Positions 14,817-47,709 of a stretch of 61,732 bases of DNA are shown here, piece by piece. The stretch is from the IMG/VR virus record IMGVR_UViG_3300030329_003372, positions 1-61,732 of that record. The stretch is one strand, 5' to 3'. This stretch comes from a virus. Its lineage: Duplodnaviria > Caudoviricetes. The notes under the pieces are model-generated. The model was not told the origin of the DNA. It made no database searches and saw only the letters and a program-made list of their open reading frames with translations. Made by a program: the position numbers and the translations under genes. Position 1 is the stretch's first letter. Every line of letters starts with the position of its first letter.

Positions 14817-14833
14817 TCAATCACCACTCTCAA

Positions 14834-35296: not shown

Positions 35297-35800
35297 TCAG
35301 TCCAACGATTTCAATAACTGAAGGTGGAAAGACAGACGTTCGTTCATAAGCGTCTGCCACTGACGCTTCATGCTTGGTCGTGCTTCATACATGGCCGTTA
35401 AGGTCTTACTGTGTGGCAACATCTCGTATTCTTCATACGTCATTCCATTGAATAATTTCCCTAATTCTTCAAAACCGCTATGCTTGATTTCTTCCAAGTG
35501 CCGCATGACCACGTAAGCAATCGTGCCTGTGCGGTCACGACCATGAATACAATGCAACACTACGTCACGCCCTTCGTCTAACAGTTTCATCACCTTCTGT
35601 GCGGCGGCTGTCCAATTCGCTAAGGGTGTGAACTTCTTGTAGGATAGGTAGTGACAATAGGTTTCCCCATGCCATTGACGATGCGGCTTATCGCATAGTG
35701 TAACAACGGCGGGGTTGTCTATGCCTTCGACTGTTTCCATGAAGTCGTTGAGTCCACACATCGTGAGTGTGCCGTTGCCTACTTCGATTGGTGTGTTCAT
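35297..35800 (-). CDS. Cys-based (PTP/dual-specificity) phosphatase
   Basis: VVLHCIHGRDRTG = HCx5R motif. Confidence 0.8.
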   Translation of the reverse strand: MNTPIEVGNGTLTMCGLNDFMETVEGIDNPAVVTLCDKPHRQWHGETYCHYLSYKKFTPLANWTAAAQKVMKLLDEGRDVVLHCIHGRDRTGTIAYVVMRHLEEIKHSGFEELGKLFNGMTYEEYEMLPHSKTLTAMYEARPSMKRQWQTLMNERLSFHLQLLKSLD

Positions 35801-38579: not shown

Positions 38580-39257
38580 TCAAGCAACTCTACGTGCGAT
38601 GTTGCCGATTCGTTCTTGCATGACATTTCTCGTCATAGGATTCTGAAGATGTTGTAGTGCTTGTGTGAAAGCATCCTCACCACCGTATTGGTCCCATGAT
38701 TGACCCAACTCTTGCTCACTCATGTTGCCGAACACTTCAGGTGTGTATGATGGCTTCCACTGCATTGTGTCGAGGTCGCTAATGTCGCCGCTCCAAGCAT
38801 CCTTCTTGGGTGCGCCCTGCGCCCTGAATGGTCCCGCGCCTCCTACATCAACGTAGGTTGGTGTCCCATCCGGTCGAATCAATACGTTGTCTAAACCAAG
38901 ACCGAGAACATCCCAATTCCCAATCGCAGCATGAGGCACGAAGTCCTGTCGAACTCGTTGCACTGCGTCCTTATCATGTAGGTTTAAGGGTCGCGCGTCC
39001 TCTTCATATCGAGAAAGCATGGTGTAGGGCCATTGACTTGGCCCGAATAATTTTGCTTCAGGAACACCAACGCCGAGGGCGTCGAGATAACGATTCATAT
39101 CGAACTCGTTGAGAATGTGAGCAGGGTGCGCCCCCTTCTTTCTAACAAAGCGTTGCCCTGTTGGTGTTTCATGCAAACGCGCCCCTGTGCTACCACCGAG
39201 ATTGATGCCTCGCCTACCGCGAATGTTCTGCCAAGCGGCATCCATCGGGTCGGGCAT
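38580..39257 (-). CDS. Atypical kinase (HipA/CtkA/PI3-4K-like fold) with N-terminal PMDAAW tag
   Basis: Gly loop GGSTGA, VRK lysine, NE helix, catalytic loop IGNWDV..LDN and DFG-like VDVGG. Confidence 0.6.
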   Translation of the reverse strand: MPDPMDAAWQNIRGRRGINLGGSTGARLHETPTGQRFVRKKGAHPAHILNEFDMNRYLDALGVGVPEAKLFGPSQWPYTMLSRYEEDARPLNLHDKDAVQRVRQDFVPHAAIGNWDVLGLGLDNVLIRPDGTPTYVDVGGAGPFRAQGAPKKDAWSGDISDLDTMQWKPSYTPEVFGNMSEQELGQSWDQYGGEDAFTQALQHLQNPMTRNVMQERIGNIARRVA

Positions 39258-39289
39258 GAAGAAGCGGAAGTGACTATCACGTATCATGC

Positions 39290-39874
39290 TTACGCGAGCC
39301 AAAAGTCATGGCCCTTGAGTGCATCATCAACAGACGACTCAATGCCTGACATATCCAAGAAAGATTGAAAGACACCTTTGTTTGTTTCATTCACTTCGGC
39401 ATCTGATGGATTACGAAGAAACACGGCATCCTCGCTAAGAGGAATAAGCCCTGCCTCGTAACCATCGAGGTATGCTGCGTATGCTGATTCGTTTAGATAG
39501 CCCTCATCATCCATCAGGGTAATGCCTTTCACACGCCACGTTGATTTCATCGGGTCTGTTATCGCCTGTAGTTGCAGCGTATGAATCCAAGACAAAGGAA
39601 CTTCAAAGTGTTCAGCAAGTTGCTCGTATGCCAACCACCAACAAACCACATCGAACTGTTGAGCGGAACCCAACATCTGTATCGGGTCACCTACCATACT
39701 CAACCATGAGGTGTGGTCCGTGCTTGAATCACGTGCGGCATTCAACATTCGCTCGGCTGCGTTACGTCGCTTGAAGTAAACATCATTGATAGTCTGATTG
39801 AACTGTGGCATATCCACTTGCATTCTCTCAACCAAGTCGTTAAGACCTTCTTCTAATGAATGGAATAGTGTCAT
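39290..39874 (-). CDS. Hypothetical protein
   Basis: 194-aa ORF with GGTGAGG SD. Confidence 0.6.
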   Translation of the reverse strand: MTLFHSLEEGLNDLVERMQVDMPQFNQTINDVYFKRRNAAERMLNAARDSSTDHTSWLSMVGDPIQMLGSAQQFDVVCWWLAYEQLAEHFEVPLSWIHTLQLQAITDPMKSTWRVKGITLMDDEGYLNESAYAAYLDGYEAGLIPLSEDAVFLRNPSDAEVNETNKGVFQSFLDMSGIESSVDDALKGHDFWLA

Positions 39875-40025
39875 TCGTCCTCACCTACTATCTGTATGTA
39901 TTGTTCAATCTTTTTCAACTCTTCCGAAACCACGTGTTCGATATGCAAACTCAAGATAGGACAACTCGTTACACTCTTTACGAAGCACTTCAACGCGTAT
40001 TCTTCATACGTCATTCCATTCTCAC

Positions 40026-40517
40026 TCATAGTCCCACCGCCTCATGTATCTGTGCGATGGTCATGTCACTGTTCAGGTGATAGCCCATGCGCTGTGCAGT
40101 TTCAAGAAGGTCAGCCTTGTTCATCTTCTTCATGTTGCTTCGCCACTCACCGCATTGGTTAGCGACGATTGTTTCTAAGTTCGCAAGAGTAATCTGACCT
40201 GACTCTATCAAGTATTGAATCTGTTCCTCACCTGTGCGCTCTTCCGGTAGGGCCAAGTGTTCTACCAAGCGTTGCACTGTGTGGCGTAGTTCTGTGAACT
40301 CATCATTATCTTCAAGCGCATCATCAAAGTATTCATACAACTCTTCACGCGCTGTATCACGCATATCGCTATCGTCAATGTATTCATTCAAGTCTTCGTC
40401 CCGAAGGACAGACATTACCTCATCCCTTATGTCGAGATGCTCGGCCACATCACGTGCAATTTCTCTTACATCTATGTCTAATTCTACATCGCCTATATCT
40501 ACTGTTACCCAAGTCAT
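40026..40517 (-). CDS. Acidic protein with a possible C-terminal SAP/Rho-N-like helical motif
   Basis: MNKADLLETAQRMG...MTIAQIHEAV. Confidence 0.5.
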   Translation of the reverse strand: MTWVTVDIGDVELDIDVREIARDVAEHLDIRDEVMSVLRDEDLNEYIDDSDMRDTAREELYEYFDDALEDNDEFTELRHTVQRLVEHLALPEERTGEEQIQYLIESGQITLANLETIVANQCGEWRSNMKKMNKADLLETAQRMGYHLNSDMTIAQIHEAVGL

Positions 40518-40969
40518 TCTTCCTCACCTACATCTGTTGCCAATGTGTATGGTTCTTCACCAAGCACTATTGTAATCAAATCATTCAACCCTGCGAACTG
40601 TAGTAGTTCAGCCACAGCGGGTGATGCGGGCTTCATGTTCAGCACCGCACCCTTCGGATGGTTGAGCGGGTCAGACCCTTGCGGGCTTGACTCAATCATC
40701 ATCTGTGTAACCTCGCCGTATTGATACAGCGTCGCAGGGATGTATAGTGTATCGCCGCTCGCAGGTGATTGGTTCACCGGCTCTTGTGCAGCGAGCCACT
40801 CATTCAGTTCCTGTGGAATACGATATTCCGCAGCCATGCCATACTTGCGTAGGTATGGTGAGTTCTCGTTCACGTTCGGGCCAAGCACTTGTATGTGCAT
40901 CAGCGTGTCGCTGAAGTTACATCTCACCTGCAATCTATTCTCAAACTTCTGTTCTTGTTCAGTCGTCAT
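40514..40969 (-). CDS. Hypothetical protein
   Basis: First ORF after promoter copy 7. Confidence 0.6.
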   Translation of the reverse strand: MTTEQEQKFENRLQVRCNFSDTLMHIQVLGPNVNENSPYLRKYGMAAEYRIPQELNEWLAAQEPVNQSPASGDTLYIPATLYQYGEVTQMMIESSPQGSDPLNHPKGAVLNMKPASPAVAELLQFAGLNDLITIVLGEEPYTLATDVGEEE

Positions 40970-40992
40970 ATCATCACTTCCTTCATTCCTAA

Positions 40993-41016
40993 TTCTACTA
41001 TTGGTTTAAATATAAA
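40993..41016 (-). promoter_or_regulatory. Conserved viral TATA promoter, copy 7
   Basis: One mismatch to consensus. Confidence 0.8.
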
Positions 41017-41149
41017 ATTCATTCTTCATATCTCCTAATGTTCCATCGGGTATTGCATACAGAACATCTAAGGTGGTCATGCCATTCTGTTCCTGTGTGA
41101 ATGAAGGATATGTCCTCCATGCAACACTCTCTTATGTTACGCTCGTCGC

Positions 41150-42370
41150 TCATTCTTTCACATCCTCAAGTTTCTTTGGGCTACGCTTCGGTGGCTTCTT
41201 ATTCGTCATGCCATTGTAGCACTGCGAGCAAGTAGTGTCGTCCTGATGATAGCGGAAGAATTGGTAAGCAGGTTTGTATTTGTTACAATCACAACACTGA
41301 ACCTTCTCCTGTGATGCACGGATTTTCAAGTCAAGTGCGGAAGCATGACACATAACACACACGCCCAAGTTCGGGACCATGTATGCCTTCGGGTGTTCAC
41401 CGTCACACATCGGACAGAATTCTGTGTGTAATGTAGAATCGTCTTCCCATGTGAGAGAGTCATGGTGACAAGTATGACAGTATGAATCATCTAACTTGGC
41501 TGTGCATAGTGGACAGTCTTCTTCATCTTCGATAACAAGAAGTGGCTCATCGAATTCCTCATCTTGCATCGCATCGAATTCATCTTCGGCTACTTCAGCG
41601 AGCGTCATGATTTTGTCATCATCCACATCCTGAATGTCAGCCCACTGATTGCTTCCGCCCCAATAGTTACCACCATAGGAAACTTCTGCGATTAACATCT
41701 CGCCCAAAGGGATGTTGCATACCTCGGCAATATACTTCTGTTGTGACTGTGCTTCGACAGCGTGGTGACAGTGAGCATCACGAACCCACTTGGTTAGAGT
41801 GGCGGCATCGGTGAAGAATTCTCGGTCCTTGTCATCACCCAATAGGTAAGCGAGGATAGCCAACTGCACACCTGTGCGTCCGTGACCACCTGCACACTGA
41901 CAGGAGATACGCTTGATACCATGCTCATGAATGTCATTGACAAGCGCATACCAAAACTCCTTGCCAACCTTTGGGATGGAGAAGTCAGGCCAATCAAAGG
42001 AAATCATGAGTGGCTCTACTTCTGTAAGCGTGTCACCGCAAGTCCAACCTTCAGGAACTTCTGTCTTACTCGCACCCCATGACCCAAGTGTTTCGCTCGG
42101 TCCCATCGCAAGGTCAGCGGGAGGGTTCATCTTCTGCCAACCGCCGTTGCGGTTACGCCCACCTGCGAACACTTCAATGTCGCCCACAGTGAACACACTG
42201 TTCTGCCCTGTGTGGCAGGGTGGCTTGGGTGTAATTTTGTAACCACTACCAAAGCCTGTGCTTGTGCTACTGTAGTTGTGTGTCTTACAGTAACTCTTTC
42301 CTTTCGGTGCGTTGTTCTTGCATCCGTGCCTTACACATTTCTTTCCTTTGTTTTTCTTTCCTTTCCCCAT
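41150..42370 (-). CDS. Cys-based phosphatase (Cx5R) with N- and C-terminal Zn fingers
   Basis: WPD loop (DWPDF), CAGGHGRTG, VE..SQ Q-loop and multiple CxxC pairs. Confidence 0.8.
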   Translation of the reverse strand: MGKGKKNKGKKCVRHGCKNNAPKGKSYCKTHNYSSTSTGFGSGYKITPKPPCHTGQNSVFTVGDIEVFAGGRNRNGGWQKMNPPADLAMGPSETLGSWGASKTEVPEGWTCGDTLTEVEPLMISFDWPDFSIPKVGKEFWYALVNDIHEHGIKRISCQCAGGHGRTGVQLAILAYLLGDDKDREFFTDAATLTKWVRDAHCHHAVEAQSQQKYIAEVCNIPLGEMLIAEVSYGGNYWGGSNQWADIQDVDDDKIMTLAEVAEDEFDAMQDEEFDEPLLVIEDEEDCPLCTAKLDDSYCHTCHHDSLTWEDDSTLHTEFCPMCDGEHPKAYMVPNLGVCVMCHASALDLKIRASQEKVQCCDCNKYKPAYQFFRYHQDDTTCSQCYNGMTNKKPPKRSPKKLEDVKE

Positions 42371-42372
42371 AT

Positions 42373-44925
42373 CTATTCCTCCGTCAATTGTTCTTGTAGT
42401 TCTGTGAAGAACTCAACAATGTTCTTCTTCACACCCTTGCCGTTGCTTGTTGACTTACCCTTGAGTGTGTCAATCGCTGTAACCTCGTCGGGTATAATCA
42501 CAGGCGTGTCCGTGACCTCGCCCAACAGAACAAGTCTTTCATCTGTGGGTAGTCTTGACACCACCTTTGAAATCATCTTCATCACATATACTTGAACATC
42601 GTTACTTGTAGTAAGCGCATTGGCGATGTTGAAGCATTTCAAAAGTGTATCAGGTTCAGGCGCACTATTGCTCGCCTTCATCTCTTCCATTGTTTCGACG
42701 ACCCACTGCTCCGCCTGACTTAGAGAAGAGCCTTCATTCTCTTGCACGGGCCACATATCAAAGTGCAAGCCCATGTCCACAAAGGACAAGCCGAGTTCTG
42801 CGGTTGCTTCATTCAAAGCCTGTTCATATTTCTGTGCTGCTACCTCCTTCAGTGTTTCCATGTGTGCGCTGCAAACTTCACAGTCCTCATGACCACATGG
42901 AACGAACTTGTCGGCTCCCGCTTGTGTTGCTTCCCCGCCACCACTGTGTAGGAGGTAGGCGTCACCACGTGAAACCATCTCATTGATGCTGTCCTTGAGT
43001 AGTTGTGGTGCAGCCTCATCGAGCATAATGGGGTTCTTCTTCCACTTACTGTTACCACGACTCAACACATACTGCATTGTGTCAGCAACGTCGTGTAGTT
43101 CAGGTCGAACACCGCGCTTGGTGACAGCGGCTCGCGCTGCATAGTAGACGTTGAACATTTGGCTAAGTTCAGGCTCGCAGCCATCGGCTGCCGTGGACAT
43201 ATCCATTGTGGATTGCTTGACGAACTTGTTGAAGAACATACCATTGTTGTGAACTGCATTCTTACAGATGTTTGTTGTTTCAATGAGTGAGAGTAGTGTG
43301 TCCTTGCATGGGTTGGCTACGAACTCACCTGCCTTGAGAAGCAGGGCTTGTCCCTTCTGTATGCTCTCCATGTATTTTGTGCCACCGTATGAGGATGACC
43401 AATTGCTTCGGAACATACGGACAAGCCATTCAAAGACGCCGTGCATCGAGAGCATAGTCAGTGGTGTCTTCTCCATTGTGTAGTAGTAGTGTTGTCGAAC
43501 ATTGGGTGGTGCTGTAATGTTGTAACCGTCACACTCCACCCACTTACCCTTGAAGATAGCATTGAGTGTGCTGAACACATCGGGCGTGTTGGAACGTCGC
43601 TGTCCCTTTGCATTCCTCATCTCACCAAGACCCACAGCCAACGTTGCATTGACGAGCCAACCTGTATACACACCACCCAAGAAGGCAGTGGTCTTCGGGT
43701 CGCTCATAGGAGCAGCAGCGAACTGATGGAAGTGGTGTCCCAAGTGAACATACATACGAGTCCAATGGTGCAACCCAACAGTGAGTCCTTCCTTGAAGTC
43801 GTTGATGTAGTCCACCGGGTCGTATGGACTTGCCTTGTATTTTGGGTCGTCAACAACCCAACCCGTAGCAGGTTCAACCCATGTGCTACCTACGTTCACC
43901 CTGTCAATGATGTAGGGTGTTGAGTATGAACGTGCTTGAGCAGCAGCGTGTGAAGCCATGTTACCATCAGGGTGACTGATGACGAATCCCTTTGGCAACT
44001 CTTGTCGAAGACGTTCTTCAAGGGCTGCGCTGTAATCCTCCATCTCACCCTCGCAAACGAATACTTCTGTAACCTTGACCTTGCCTTGTGGAACGAAGCC
44101 CTGCACAGTCACACCCTTTGGTGGTGGGTTGATTGGTTGGTGGCCCGCGCATCCACGTAGTTGAGTAATGGAATTGGCGGTGTTCAACATCATACCTGTG
44201 TGCATGGTGTTGAACAAGGCATCATCATCATTCTTCGGAATGGGTTTGTTGTGTGTGTTGTCACGCAACAAGGACACGAACTCAACCTCGTAGTTGGCAG
44301 GGTCCATCTCAAGTGTCCTCCACATCTGTCGGAGCCATGCTGACTTGCCCGTAACAGGCAAGGTAATTTTCAAGCCATCCAATGCTGCTGTGATGCCATC
44401 ATTGTCACGACCCATCACAATGTAACCCTGCGTGTGGGTGCCTGTATCTTTGTCCCACACACCGGGAGCCATGACCGCCGAGGCATGAGCATTGATGAAA
44501 GGTTGGATGATGATACATCCTTCAGGCTCACAAAGACCATGCTTGTAGAGCGCAGGTTCAGCAGTGTCTTCACTGAACATGGTTTCCATGATACGAATAA
44601 GGTTGTTCTGTAACTGAACCTTGTCGAAGACAGGCAGTGACTCAAGCACACCGGGTCGTGCATTGAGTGGACAGACACGAATGAATAGTTCTTGGTCGTC
44701 GTCGCCACCGAAGTGTTCCCATACATGAGAAGCCTCCGTTTTAGCGAGGTTCTTGATGAGTCCCTCCTTGACCATAGCCAACGCATGAGCCTGACTATTG
44801 AACTTGGGCATATCTATGCGGAAGGTTTTGAGTGGTGACCAATACCGTTCGATGGCATACGCATCGTAAACTTCCTTGTATTTGTTGTAGTCACCTGCTT
44901 TCTGACTTGCAATCTTGTCTGTCAT
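42373..44925 (-). CDS. PEP-utilizer/PPDK-superfamily dikinase-like protein (ATP-grasp, phospho-His swivel and unknown C-terminal domain)
   Basis: IRVCP..ARPGVLES, IIQPFI, EVEFV and TQLR ATP-grasp motifs; DGNMASHAAAQARSYSTP His-domain motif. Start at ATG 44925 chosen from SD spacing. Confidence 0.7.
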   Translation of the reverse strand: MTDKIASQKAGDYNKYKEVYDAYAIERYWSPLKTFRIDMPKFNSQAHALAMVKEGLIKNLAKTEASHVWEHFGGDDDQELFIRVCPLNARPGVLESLPVFDKVQLQNNLIRIMETMFSEDTAEPALYKHGLCEPEGCIIIQPFINAHASAVMAPGVWDKDTGTHTQGYIVMGRDNDGITAALDGLKITLPVTGKSAWLRQMWRTLEMDPANYEVEFVSLLRDNTHNKPIPKNDDDALFNTMHTGMMLNTANSITQLRGCAGHQPINPPPKGVTVQGFVPQGKVKVTEVFVCEGEMEDYSAALEERLRQELPKGFVISHPDGNMASHAAAQARSYSTPYIIDRVNVGSTWVEPATGWVVDDPKYKASPYDPVDYINDFKEGLTVGLHHWTRMYVHLGHHFHQFAAAPMSDPKTTAFLGGVYTGWLVNATLAVGLGEMRNAKGQRRSNTPDVFSTLNAIFKGKWVECDGYNITAPPNVRQHYYYTMEKTPLTMLSMHGVFEWLVRMFRSNWSSSYGGTKYMESIQKGQALLLKAGEFVANPCKDTLLSLIETTNICKNAVHNNGMFFNKFVKQSTMDMSTAADGCEPELSQMFNVYYAARAAVTKRGVRPELHDVADTMQYVLSRGNSKWKKNPIMLDEAAPQLLKDSINEMVSRGDAYLLHSGGGEATQAGADKFVPCGHEDCEVCSAHMETLKEVAAQKYEQALNEATAELGLSFVDMGLHFDMWPVQENEGSSLSQAEQWVVETMEEMKASNSAPEPDTLLKCFNIANALTTSNDVQVYVMKMISKVVSRLPTDERLVLLGEVTDTPVIIPDEVTAIDTLKGKSTSNGKGVKKNIVEFFTELQEQLTEE

Positions 44926-44950
44926 ATTTCTCAAACTCCTTCATTCCAAA

Positions 44951-44974
44951 TTCTACTGTTGGTTTAAATATAAA
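44951..44974 (-). promoter_or_regulatory. Conserved viral TATA promoter, copy 8
   Basis: Perfect consensus directly upstream of the dikinase. Confidence 0.85.
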
Positions 44975-44994
44975 ATGGTTCAGTGCTTTGATTT

Positions 44995-45249
44995 TCATTG
45001 TCTTCCAAGCACCTTGTTTTCAGATACGTGTAGGTCACCAAGCACCCATCGTAGTGCCATGATTACACCTTCCAATGCCTTGTAGTTTCTCATGTGTTCA
45101 ATGCGTTTCTTCTTACTCTTTGCGCGTTGCATGAACATGAAGTGTTTGTTCTGTTCAAGTTCAGCCTTGTCGAGCATGGCGAGTATGTCTTCCCAATCCT
45201 TGTCGTATGCAAAGTTCTCACTGTCTTGATGGTCATTCATCTCCGTCAT
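44995..45249 (-). CDS. Hypothetical protein
   Basis: 84-aa ORF with GGAGG SD. Confidence 0.55.
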   Translation of the reverse strand: MTEMNDHQDSENFAYDKDWEDILAMLDKAELEQNKHFMFMQRAKSKKKRIEHMRNYKALEGVIMALRWVLGDLHVSENKVLGRQ

Positions 45250-45533
45250 CCTCCAATAGTATTTCTAACAATTCAATTACATCACAACTCCTATCCTCAT
45301 ACGAATAATTCATGAGATTCATGAGAGAAAGGATGTGGCTGACCAATCGCTTTTCCATGCTGTTCATTTTTTCACCTTCCCCATAACATCCAAGTGAATT
45401 AACAATAGGTCTATCTTCTTACTCTTTGTGTAAGAACCAAGACTACCCATGCCCAAATCACGGGCCATGTGGTTCAAGCCAACACTGTGTATTCTATCGA
45501 GGTAGTTTCTCCAAACCTTTTCTGTTCTTACTT

Positions 45534-45758
45534 TCATTCTTCCTCATCCTCCGATGGTGGTATACGTCGCGTGAAGTAAACATCATTGATAGTCTGTATG
45601 TGTGGCTGTATGATTTGTTCAAACTTTTTCTTGCGGTTGTATAGAATACGGTAATACTCGGCCCGACTCTTCTTTACAGAAGTTTTTTTCTCGTCGGGGC
45701 AACAACGCACATATCTGTGGTATTCCTTACCGCATATTCTACAACGCATATAACTCAA
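45534..45758 (-). CDS. Small Zn-finger protein
   Basis: CRICG...CC; shares a 34-bp block with the 39290 gene. Confidence 0.5.
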   Translation of the reverse strand: MSYMRCRICGKEYHRYVRCCPDEKKTSVKKSRAEYYRILYNRKKKFEQIIQPHIQTINDVYFTRRIPPSEDEEE

Positions 45759-46126
45759 TTCAATCGCCTCGCTAATACTGATTCGACTACGAGGTAGCCG
45801 AATGATAATACAAAGATGCCCATGACTAACACGACAGGTAGTATGTCTATTGTGTCTTGACTCATTTTTCGCTCACCACAATATCAACTACTTCCACGTA
45901 ATTTGAGTCATTAACGATTTCATAACCCATAGCGTCTGCTTCTTCTTGTGATTCAGCCTCAACTTCTGCGTAGTATTCTACCAACACTCTCACTCTATAT
46001 GTTTTCATTCTTCATTCCTCCTGTATGGTGCGTAGTATCTCATGGCCCAAGCCATCGCACACCACGCACAGATTTCTATGATTGTTCCCACGACTACAAC
46101 CCACTGTGTTGTTGAAGAGAGTAGGT

Positions 46127-46441
46127 TCATTCGTCTTCACCCAAACATTGACACTCGCCATCACAATCATCACATTCATCATAACAATCACAAAATTCCG
46201 TGTTGCACTCACCTTTGTATAGCCTAAGCGCACCAATGTATTGACTACCATCTGCAAAATACACTGTGACATACGGCCCTGTGTGTTCGCTACCAACCAC
46301 CTTATCCCAATCGTCAATTGTTACTCTCGGTTGTTCAGCGTATTCCAATGCTTTACCTCTCCACTCTTCGTGCTGCATGGAAAGGCGCTTCACTAAAGTG
46401 ATTAGTTCTTGCTTGCTCATGTCTTCGTATGTTCTACCCAT
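46127..46441 (-). CDS. Hypothetical protein with Cys-rich C-terminus
   Basis: CDCYDECDDCDGECQC. Confidence 0.55.
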   Translation of the reverse strand: MGRTYEDMSKQELITLVKRLSMQHEEWRGKALEYAEQPRVTIDDWDKVVGSEHTGPYVTVYFADGSQYIGALRLYKGECNTEFCDCYDECDDCDGECQCLGEDE

Positions 46442-46560
46442 GATTTACACCCCAATGTTCCGGCCATCTATTTTGTAATGAAGCACCGTGTTCGCATACT
46501 TCATCCGGTTTAATGGTTCCACCTCTTACTGCTACAACGCAGCCGCATGGTAATCTTGTT

Positions 46561-46785
46561 CTATTCATTTACAATCACCCTGATACTTGCCAACAAATCG
46601 TTCAACTCTTGCGTTGCTTTCTCATTGAATACTACCTGCTCATCGAGCATCTTCTGTAGTTCAATGAGTTCAAGAGTCAACTTCTCTAACTCATCCATGA
46701 GTGTCCCATTGATATACATGAGATACTCCATCTTGCTATCGAAGGCCCTGCCTTCAGCCACCATAATGTCGTCTTCCTTACTCAT
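46561..46785 (-). CDS. Coiled-coil small protein
   Basis: Heptad Leu pattern. Confidence 0.5.
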   Translation of the reverse strand: MSKEDDIMVAEGRAFDSKMEYLMYINGTLMDELEKLTLELIELQKMLDEQVVFNEKATQELNDLLASIRVIVNE

Positions 46786-47024
46786 CCTTTCACTTCCTCG
46801 GTGCTGTCCTTACTCTTCAGTAGTGGTGTGTTACAGAACACATCTTGTTGTGGGTCATGGTAGTAACCCTGTCGCCCTTGCTTGAGTAAGCGTTTGCATA
46901 CGATGTTGTCCTTAACATCCTCATACTTGTCCTGTGGTCTGTGGTGAAAGCGGCTTGGCTTTCTTGCCATGCTATGTGTGCGCCACTTCTCACAAGTAGG
47001 ACAATAACCCGCCCACTTACTCAT
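46782..47024 (-). CDS. Small Zn-finger protein
   Basis: CPTC...C...C. Confidence 0.5.
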   Translation of the reverse strand: MSKWAGYCPTCEKWRTHSMARKPSRFHHRPQDKYEDVKDNIVCKRLLKQGRQGYYHDPQQDVFCNTPLLKSKDSTEEVKG

Positions 47025-47299
47025 TCTTCCTCACCATCCTTCAAGGTGAAGGCCATGTTGTATTGACCATCTACTTCTTCCCATGAGAACTCATAGTGTC
47101 CTTCACTAATGTCGAGCAACTGTCGACCCGTAAAGTGCGGGAAGCACGACGCCAATATCTTAACACGAACTGCTTTGTTCTTGAACTCTTTATTCCAATC
47201 ACTTGCCCGTGATTCCATTTGCGTAGCCACGAAGTTAGGGTGGATGAACCCGTTGCTATCCCATGCTACTGTTATCTCATTCTCCATTTCGATTGCCAT
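47021..47299 (-). CDS. Hypothetical protein, leaderless
   Basis: Start reassigned to ATG 47299, 29 nt below the TATA of promoter copy 9. Confidence 0.6.
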   Translation of the reverse strand: MAIEMENEITVAWDSNGFIHPNFVATQMESRASDWNKEFKNKAVRVKILASCFPHFTGRQLLDISEGHYEFSWEEVDGQYNMAFTLKDGEEE

Positions 47300-47308
47300 C
47301 AATCTTAA

Positions 47309-47332
47309 TTCCACTGTTGGTTTAAATATAAA
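47309..47332 (-). promoter_or_regulatory. Conserved viral TATA promoter, copy 9
   Basis: One mismatch to consensus. Confidence 0.8.
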
Positions 47333-47385
47333 ACAGATTTTGGGGGCTGAAAACAAATGTCTTCAACAAGAAGGTCACGCGTGAC

Positions 47386-47709
47386 CTACTCTTCTTCATC
47401 ATTGATTACCGTGCTATCCAAAGCAAGGATGAACCAAGAGCGTGAAGATATTGTCACGTTTCGATAGTGTAAACGGAAGCGAGTAAAGCCATGCTTCCCG
47501 TTGTATGTAATCAAATCGTTCTTCTTTACTTCGTGTCTTAGATTGGGTGAGGATTCGGCCACCATGATTGAGTCACCTGACCACAATCCTTCCAACCACT
47601 TGGCGTTACCAAGCATCAATCTCACCATCTGTCCGCGCTTGTATGTATCTATTGCTTCATTCCAATCTTCTATTCCTTTCATCTTCCGAACACCTCCTTG
47701 TGTCCACAC
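47386..47709 (-). CDS. Hypothetical protein
   Basis: ORF track; start uncertain. Confidence 0.5.
   Translation of the reverse strand: MWTQGGVRKMKGIEDWNEAIDTYKRGQMVRLMLGNAKWLEGLWSGDSIMVAESSPNLRHEVKKNDLITYNGKHGFTRFRLHYRNVTISSRSWFILALDSTVINDEEE

Follow-up and report, generated by a model that had tools for sequence, protein, structure and literature searches.

Dikinases of the pyruvate phosphate dikinase (PPDK) and phosphoenolpyruvate (PEP) synthase type possess an ATP-grasp domain followed by a swivel domain, with the swivel histidine in a G-x-x-[ST/A]-[SC]-H-A-A...P motif, together with a TIM barrel. In the published accounts covered here, HpeHI and rifampin phosphotransferase (RPH) represent an established class of split small-molecule dikinases in which the acceptor domain has been exchanged, and enzymes such as HpeHI and phenylphosphate synthase phosphorylate phenolic hydroxyls. 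The PPDK, PEP synthase and RPH enzymes convert ATP, an acceptor and water (or Pi) into AMP, the phospho-acceptor and Pi (or PPi) by way of a phospho-His. Glucan water dikinase (GWD) of plants is described as transferring phosphate via a His-domain mechanism, and it is opposed by the phosphoglucan phosphatases SEX4 and LSF2. Here, a locus of a marine virus is described in which a dikinase-like gene (gene A) stands directly before a gene for a Cys-based phosphatase (gene B), both on the minus strand of IMG/VR record IMGVR_UViG_3300030329_003372 (Duplodnaviria; Caudoviricetes). The 61,732 nucleotides (nt) of this stretch were analysed at full length and are referred to as the window. The original prediction, made from the sequence alone, had taken the pair for a system that reversibly phosphorylates a host target early in infection. 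The present analysis gives good support to a phosphatase-coupled dikinase whose acceptor is not pyruvate. Moreover, we incline, without strong conviction, to the reading that A and B form a fused virus-specific phosphotransfer module, composed of a PPDK/PEP synthase/RPH-type core, an all-helical acceptor domain (hereafter HEL) and a phosphatase of the protein tyrosine phosphatase (PTP) fold, for which the acceptor would be other than pyruvate. The two genes and their domains are laid out as follows.

42373..44934, minus strand: gene A, dikinase-like; a TTG start at 44934 gives 853 aa and the likely ATG start at 44925 gives 850 aa; stop codon at 42373-42375.
44116..44925, minus strand: A residues 1-270, ATP-grasp nucleotide-binding domain with the motifs SQKA, FxRxCPxxxRxGVLES, IIQPFI, ExEF and QLRG.
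43846..44115, minus strand: A residues 271-360, putative phospho-His swivel domain; the candidate catalytic His326 (codon 43948-43950) lies in GNMASHAAAQARSYSTPYI.
42826..43845, minus strand: A residues 361-700, putative all-helical HEL acceptor domain with invariant polar residues and a His/Cys3 cluster.
42376..42825, minus strand: A residues 701-850, variable helical tail, modelled at lower confidence (predicted local distance difference test, pLDDT, 47-89) and poorly conserved.
41150..42370, minus strand: gene B, Cys phosphatase of 406 aa; Lys-rich N-terminus with a Cys/His cluster.
41681-42238, minus strand: B residues ~45-230, PTP core with the DWPDFSIP loop, C159-x5-R165-T (Cys codon 41894-41896) and SQQKYI.
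41201-41488, minus strand: B residues ~295-390, zinc ribbons with CxxC pairs.

The motifs from which an ATP-grasp and phospho-His enzyme of about 850 aa had been predicted (ARPGVLES, IIQPFI, EVEFV, TQLR and GNMASHAAAQAR) are all found in the translation of A, as are WSSSYGG and VHNNGMFFNK of HEL. The 850-aa form is identical to a database protein from public metagenomes (P0003). The order of the motifs in A, namely FIRVCP...RPGVLES, IIIQPFI, EVEFV...ITQLRG and GNMASHAAAQARSYSTPYI, is that of FAVRSS, GVQRMV, DIEWA...IVQARP and GGRTCHAAIIARELGIPAV in PpsA, and the histidine along with five ATP-grasp residues is kept in 54 of 54 distant homologues. The AlphaFold2 model of A, built with a 47-sequence alignment, reached a pLDDT of 84.6 and a predicted TM-score of 0.80. 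It is alpha/beta to about residue 270, continues with a small beta/alpha unit at 274-358, and consists of helices only from 370 to 850. Foldseek searches with A ranked PEP synthase first (2ols, 1.3e-4) and PPDK second (1kbl, 5.4e-4), these two families being the best structural matches, and placed RPH (5hv1) ninth (2.3e-3) amid succinyl-CoA synthetase chains of similar E-value. Joint fold alignments covered 290 residues over model positions 1-361 for RPH (5hv3) and 284 residues over positions 3-366 for PPDK (1kbl). The N-terminal PPDK_N-type ATP-grasp domain is recognised at this fold level. The C-terminal domain, checked for an ordinary PEP/pyruvate barrel, proved helical: DSSP assignments on the models gave only helices from residue 370, and an all-helical domain stands where PPDK and PEP synthase carry the TIM barrel. 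Structure searches with the HEL domain alone likewise listed no barrel enzyme. The predicted combination of ATP-grasp and His-swivel domains without a pyruvate barrel is supported by the model, by Foldseek and by the joint fold alignments, the swivel domain remaining a candidate assignment.

At the sequence level, the PPDK and PEP synthase models of Pfam and NCBIfam fail to reach A, whose ATP-grasp domain is much more compact (~270 aa). Pfam PPDK_N (PF01326) had no match in the window at E <= 10, whereas 13 of 14 control genomes match, and hmmscan of A at E <= 1 gave no PPDK_N. The sole Pfam signal in A was a sub-threshold PEP-utilizers match (E 0.23, residues 323-344); ten of the 47 family members show such a match, none of them reaching the cut-off (best E 0.015), and none of the A homologues carries a Pfam domain. 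NCBIfam gave nothing for A, B or HEL, and A matched nothing among PDB sequences, either as a single sequence or as a family profile. Comparison by hhalign with seven known dikinases yielded a probability of ~1% (1.1%), and the alignment of H326 to the CH(421)AA histidine of E. coli PpsA had a probability of 0.45%. Close-range homologues of A number 48, and HMMER against 1.84 billion representatives returned 210 matches at E <= 0.001. Among phage records, A had no blastn or tblastn match, and a short-form A matched only 4 metagenomic phage records. Additionally, no carbohydrate-binding module was found in a Pfam scan of A and its homologues. Because the sequence models fail and the barrel is absent while the fold-level features are kept, A is set apart from PPDK and PEP synthase and is filed as a new variant among swivel dikinases that is neither of the two. 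It also differs from RPH, where the swivel is C-terminal and the domain order is therefore another; RPH is not known to have a phosphatase partner.

The helical domain had been called unknown, and HEL-only structure searches indeed matched no solved fold. The rifampin-binding domain of RPH was absent from the top 50 matches of a search library that includes 5hv1_A. In the ESM Atlas, residues 365-700 of A gave a best value of 0.75 with a cluster carrying Pfam Rph_4th; this is a lead at most, as the value lies below the level reached by shuffled proteins. HEL is recognised by the signature [GR]E.R[HNY] ... [YF]GG ... HN.G..[FLY].K beside a dikinase core, which is present here, and E435, R437, G514, G515, H559, N560, G562 and K567 are its invariant residues across fused and stand-alone forms. 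Of 54 distant homologues, 52 retain each of the residues E, R, G, G, H, N and K, and 50 retain the third glycine of the signature. Both exceptions are 513-aa forms of A that also lack B, so that loss of HEL coincides with loss of B. The remainder of the domain drops to ~13% identity between Vibrio phages and archaeal-virus-like contigs. In this lineage, HEL further carries a zinc-site-like cluster formed by H660, C677, C682 and C685. A homology search with the HEL alignment returned 43 matches, all of them unnamed, 'hypothetical' or bare metagenome gene-call strings.

Gene B answers to the description of a WPD/CAGGHGR phosphatase with many zinc fingers: it contains DWPDFSIP, QCAGGHGRTG and five CxxC pairs. 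In an alignment of 40 homologues, CHxG, GGxxRxGG, DxPD, QCxGGHGRTG and then HAVE...SQQxYI are invariant, including C159 and R165. Past residue 295, the protein has five CxxC pairs, four of them without variation and the fifth present in at least 90% of the homologues. D126, P128, D129 and Q210 are invariant as well, and Q211 is conserved to at least 90% (alignment A3). The CX5R[ST] motif is kept in 52 of 52 B partners on other contigs and in 8 of 8 PTP-like proteins of cultured phages. As a single sequence, B scored 17.3 bits against Pfam Y_phosphatase, whose cut-off is 20.9; the family profile, searched against PDB sequences, found receptor-type tyrosine phosphatases (RPTP-alpha, E 5.5e-7) whose WPD, P and Q loops fall into register with those of B. 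From this register, B is predicted to be a Cys phosphatase of compact, classical type that is extended by zinc ribbons and basic segments. Like the classical PTPs (Y_phosphatase; the PTP-SAK and Tc-R-P DSP-PTPase families), it has a WPD-like loop, a C-x5-R-T P loop and a Q loop. Unlike them, it has a core of ~180 aa, the invariant N-terminal motifs CHTG and GGxNRxGGW and, in this lineage, 4-5 zinc ribbons. Short B forms (~190 aa) occur without zinc ribbons, and the most distant of these (locus L050) has WIDMSRPP in place of the WPD-type loop. A second phosphatase-like gene lies elsewhere in the window (35297-35800, minus strand); it encodes 167 aa with HCIHGRDRTG and passes the cut-off of Pfam Y_phosphatase3 (1.9e-6), and it stands outside the B family, having no B-profile match at E <= 1.

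The association of the two genes was surveyed in uncultured viruses. In a first set of 50 IMG/VR loci found with the A alignment, B lies just downstream on the same strand in 48 (tblastn), and the other two loci end too early for B. A second set of 74 loci, 18 of which re-sample first-set contigs, was obtained with an alignment of distant short forms (~550-700 aa). The A gene was called in 71 of these, and B is adjacent or within three genes in 67: it is the next gene downstream in 58, the next gene upstream in 3, and up to three genes away on the same strand in 6. In the remaining loci it lies elsewhere (1) or is absent (3). Together with five cultured phages considered below, these counts give a strongly positive answer to the linkage test set with the original prediction. 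Furthermore, among the 56 second-set loci that do not re-sample the first set, only A (53) and B (51) are conserved, the next gene cluster occurring in 5. The distances of A and B co-vary (Mantel r 0.79, n=84, reached by 0 of 500 permutations), although shared ancestry remains in this statistic; re-sampled, near-identical and truncated loci had been omitted from it.

In all, 108 different contigs from uncultured viruses, or derived from viruses, carry the pair (50 + 57 + 1). Only one A-B locus (L058) was found in 185,579 species genomes, on a 30-kb contig in a metagenome-assembled genome of the bacterium Parvibaculum. The order on that contig, helicase-A-B-c142-c203-c520, is the viral gene order, and it is most likely a viral contig mis-binned into a bacterial genome. 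The A-B module is virus-restricted and virtually absent from cellular genomes. The magrovirus-like contigs of the first set share genes of 142 aa, 203 aa and 520 aa and a helicase, all present in the window; the three neighbours were tried as a universal third gene and rejected, since they are confined to the magrovirus-like set. A search of seven module proteins with the PADLOC defence and counter-defence models gave 0 families at E <= 0.01. Two further arrangements were seen. One 108.6-kb IMG/VR contig holds two different A copies ~9 kb apart (L110 and L117), one adjoining B and the other accompanied by two B-like genes on the opposite strand. The most distant pair (L050/L059; A of 551 aa, B of 193 aa without zinc ribbons) lies on a 447.8-kb A+T-rich IMG/VR contig and adjoins an ORF (open reading frame) resembling class II lysyl-tRNA synthetase.

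A split form of the module is encountered in cultured phages. The authors of Vibrio phage vB_VneS_J26 named ORF98 a pyruvate phosphate dikinase and ORF100 a tyrosine phosphatase; their paper gives the dikinase a PEP/pyruvate role, and the part of its text covered draws no link to the phosphatase or to HEL (PMC12038007). Unlike A, the J26 'PPDK' gene has a dikinase core that is canonical in sequence and separate from HEL. It matches Pfam PPDK_N (1.1e-45) and PEP-utilizers (1.9e-19) and covers positions 2-523 of the 865-position NCBIfam PPDK model with 461 bits against a cut-off of 843, leaving ~165 residues after the swivel. ORF100, two genes past the dikinase, belongs to the B family (profile E 1.1e-8) and passes the Pfam PTP-SAK cut-off (7.3e-10; 39.5 bits vs 27). 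A stand-alone HEL, annotated as 'putative membrane protein', follows directly after the phosphatase, three genes downstream of the dikinase; the A profile detects it at E 1.1e-11, and its sequence contains REARH, FGGKPW and HNNGSVFNK. Such stand-alone HEL genes are present in 41 phage records (34 Vibrio, 4 Stenotrophomonas, 2 Rhizobium and 1 Rhodobacter). In the five cultured phages inspected, which represent 4 host genera, dikinase, phosphatase and HEL keep the same relative order in 5 of 5. One to three small ORFs separate the dikinase from the phosphatase, and the module is located between terminase and DNA polymerase. ORF98, ORF100 and the 'membrane protein' gene are regarded, on their sequence matches, as the same module as A-B. 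The split form offers independent evidence for joint action of HEL and a PPDK-type ATP-grasp/swivel enzyme, and it places the phosphatase within the unit.

According to the published accounts covered, HpeHI and phenylphosphate synthase resemble the phage module in having the dikinase parts on separate polypeptides, and the acceptor of HpeHI is a small-molecule hydroxyl. However, HpeHI is divided between the grasp and the swivel-plus-acceptor parts, whereas the phage module is divided between grasp-plus-swivel and acceptor. The acceptor domain of HpeHI-type systems is also unrelated to HEL, and those accounts mention no phosphatase part. No account of a dikinase-HEL-phosphatase association in viruses was found in the literature, a search that did not extend to the rhodanese-phosphatase superfamily survey or to the J26 supplements.

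The annotation of these phages deserves a comment. The phosphatases of Vibrio phage SIO-2 and Stenotrophomonas phage DLP_5 are annotated 'thymidylate synthase', and PTP-fold proteins of these two phages and of J26 bear this label or 'thyX'; the odd PHROG name matched by B is explained by these labels. In the same three phages, a 284-aa protein without a Pfam match is labelled 'pyruvate decarboxylase' and a 160-aa one 'CsrA'. These labels, like that of 'putative membrane protein' for HEL, seem wrong, and the names of phrog_17568 and phrog_761 appear to have been inherited from them. In addition, phages RcZahn, DLP_5 and RHph_Y1_11 carry a second, longer PTP paralogue (246-262 aa, CIGGHGRT) directly after HEL. 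A 250-285-aa protein ('X3'), common to the five cultured phages, was considered as a universal third gene and rejected, as it is absent from all other loci.

Around A and B, the following elements delimit the putative transcription unit.

44949..44974, minus strand: promoter-like 26-mer TTTATATTTAAACCAACAGTAGAATT, A/T-rich, just upstream of gene A; a putative promoter.
41019..41153, minus strand: 44-aa Cys-rich ORF whose ATG overlaps the stop of B (ATGA); no further ORF precedes the next promoter copy.
40991..41016, minus strand: next promoter-like copy, which fronts a conserved 151-aa gene (40514..40969) and closes the A-B unit.

Upstream of A, an A/T-rich TATA-like box lies ~50 nt before the ATG, and GGAG follows 8-10 nt before it. 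The repeat TTTATATTTAAACCAAYAGTAGAATT occurs in 11 copies at <=3 mismatches between window positions 14832 and 54358, all on the minus strand, where 0 are expected (100 shuffles). Two copies were read directly as standing just upstream of gene starts, and others do so judging by position. The repeats look like a single promoter class for replication-side genes, and their TATA-like box would suit an archaeal host. The original prediction had 'promoter copy 8' driving A: a promoter-like copy does stand upstream of A, but that number was not reproduced, the copy being 7th in ascending and 5th in descending order among the 11. The 2-nt spacing between the genes (TAG, 2 nt, ATG) is as it had been described. 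Because promoter copies stand before A and after B and the 44-aa ORF, A and B would constitute one short unit. The 151-aa gene comes after B in 40 of 51 sources. The 44-aa ORF is probably not a module member and is not linked to A-B elsewhere; its sole homologue is in locus L001, there upstream of A.

The 61.7-kb record constitutes the whole window, and its completeness is estimated at 54% in the record itself. The contig is viral, as it encodes a family-B DNA polymerase, a clamp loader, a GroEL-like chaperonin, an SF2 helicase and a virion-type protein of 2,476 aa; a gene for an ERCC4 nuclease is also found on it. GroEL, an RFC-type clamp loader and the ERCC4 nuclease match the description of magroviruses in the portion of that account covered (PMC5434244). 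The DNA polymerase is nearest to haloarchaeal virus polymerases (24% identity), whereas the clamp-loader search pointed to bacterial phages; an archaeal host is probable. Two side features of the surrounding region were noted. A 240-aa ORF (38580-39302, minus strand) that matches nothing in Pfam or PHROGs contains DNVLIRPDG...YVDVGG, which is reminiscent of the catalytic and metal-binding loops of kinase-like folds. At 39000-47700 (minus strand), many neighbouring ORFs terminate in Glu runs (…GEEE, …DEEE, …TEE), and the purine-rich ribosome-binding sites there probably sit within the 3' end of the preceding gene.

For the phosphotransfer module, the following mechanism may be envisaged. ATP would be bound by the ATP-grasp domain, its beta-phosphate would be transferred to His326 with release of AMP, and the gamma-phosphate would pass to water. 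The swivel domain would then carry the phosphate to HEL, where a pocket of Glu, Arg, Gly-Gly, His-Asn and Lys could hand it on to a hydroxyl group on an acceptor other than pyruvate, and B would act on the same substrate or pathway via a Cys159 thiophosphate intermediate. The favoured acceptor is small and universal (a phospho-metabolite, a nucleotide or the end of a nucleic acid) and not a protein particular to one host, because the invariant HEL residues are shared by viruses of unrelated hosts and the pair has no other conserved neighbours. Provided that the substrate is shared, the foremost though still tentative role of B would be to remove a different phosphate of the same molecule, as in end-healing or pool remodelling. 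Reversal of the phosphate placed by A is possible and slightly less probable, being rated lower because co-transcription at 2 nt would make it wasteful. Some other role is unlikely, and acceptance of the phosphate in a relay is more doubtful again. T4 Pnkp, a viral kinase and phosphatase that are always together and act on different ends of one substrate, serves as a model of how a co-expressed pair avoids futility. It differs from A-B in that its folds are unrelated (P-loop kinase, HAD phosphatase) and that no conserved ligase partner stands beside A-B. Several points weigh against the module as proposed. A fails sequence-level membership of the dikinase family, as judged by PF01326, the PDB profile search and hhalign. 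Instead of serving as a catalytic acceptor domain, HEL could be a phospho-carrier or itself the substrate. A protein or nucleic-acid target would likewise be compatible with the basic tail and zinc ribbons of magrovirus-type B, and conserved adjacency would denote a shared pathway, not a shared molecule.

The nearest competing explanation keeps closest to the original prediction: A would phosphorylate a host protein, for example on Tyr, and B would remove the same mark, giving reversible control early in infection. The resemblance of B to a classical phosphotyrosine phosphatase, with a SWPDFGVP-like loop and the RPTP-alpha match, is in accord with it, as are the phenol-directed dikinases described in the accounts of HpeHI and phenylphosphate synthase and the zinc ribbons and basic tail of magrovirus-type B, which could dock on a macromolecule. 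GWD with SEX4/LSF2, the analogy drawn at the outset, is similar in that a dikinase and a Cys-based dual-specificity-type phosphatase share one substrate; however, the plant genes are unlinked and their enzymes active at different times, whereas A and B would be co-transcribed. Made together from genes 2 nt apart, they would sustain a futile, ATP-burning cycle at a single site, and the short B forms have no zinc ribbons with which to dock. Moreover, the same invariant HEL residues are found in Vibrio, Stenotrophomonas, Rhizobium and Rhodobacter phages and in archaeal-virus-like contigs, and a host-specific protein surface is hard to square with such different hosts. An early writer/eraser directed at a host target is thus plausible, but it is not the most likely form, and reversible marking of a host protein is considered unlikely. 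A phosphorelay is rated as more improbable than this. Phosphate would pass from ATP to the swivel His, perhaps on to His559 of HEL, and finally to Cys159 of B, which would be the final phosphotransferase, much as in the His-to-Cys steps of the sugar phosphotransferase system (PTS). Enzyme I of the PTS uses the same swivel domain, and the phage dikinase matches NCBIfam PTS_I_fam at 1e-5; one His of HEL is invariant and the domain may stand as a separate protein, B is present wherever HEL is, and EIIB of the PTS uses phospho-Cys. Against this, B retains the general-acid Asp and the Q-loop glutamines, which promote hydrolysis in classical PTPs, and no A-B fusion protein was found among 146 A homologues.

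That A and B serve unrelated ends, and lie side by side for no other reason than common regulation or ancestry, is very unlikely. It is true that many of the contigs are akin, that gene order may be kept without functional coupling and that the Mantel test leaves ancestry in. Nevertheless, A and B persist where the flanks differ, their pairing is maintained in the cultured phages, where A is divided into two genes, and HEL and B are lost together. Scarcely credible at all is the view of A as an auxiliary metabolic gene, a PPDK or PEP synthase boosting host carbon metabolism, with B an unrelated signalling phosphatase. It is the view to which the published naming of the J26 gene would lead; it is opposed by the all-helical structure of A past residue 370 and by the partial coverage, low score and short remainder of the J26 protein against the PPDK model, and it leaves the obligate HEL and phosphatase partners unexplained. 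The published assignment of the phage homologue to PEP/pyruvate metabolism is probably mistaken. To return to the preferred phosphotransfer module, a bolder extension of it may be imagined, though we hold it to be rather unlikely: a virus-only system of bacterial and archaeal viruses that makes or reshapes a novel phosphorylated molecule (a nucleotide, cofactor or DNA/RNA end, through a dikinase of new catalytic fold and a dedicated trimming phosphatase), or a PTS-like His-to-Cys relay that ends on such a molecule, in the service of genome modification or immune escape.

Swivel dikinases with exchanged acceptors are few, the recognised ones acting on pyruvate, starch, rifampin, phenols and prodigiosin precursors, and each new acceptor has revealed new chemistry. 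The putative acceptor domain HEL resembles no known fold, and a Cys phosphatase is its obligate companion. Recognition of the three-part module corrects the pyruvate-metabolism and thymidylate synthase labels that have spread into PHROGs. It also makes a question testable in tractable phage-host pairs, namely what the viral target of an AMP-forming enzyme may be and why a phosphatase would be needed beside it.

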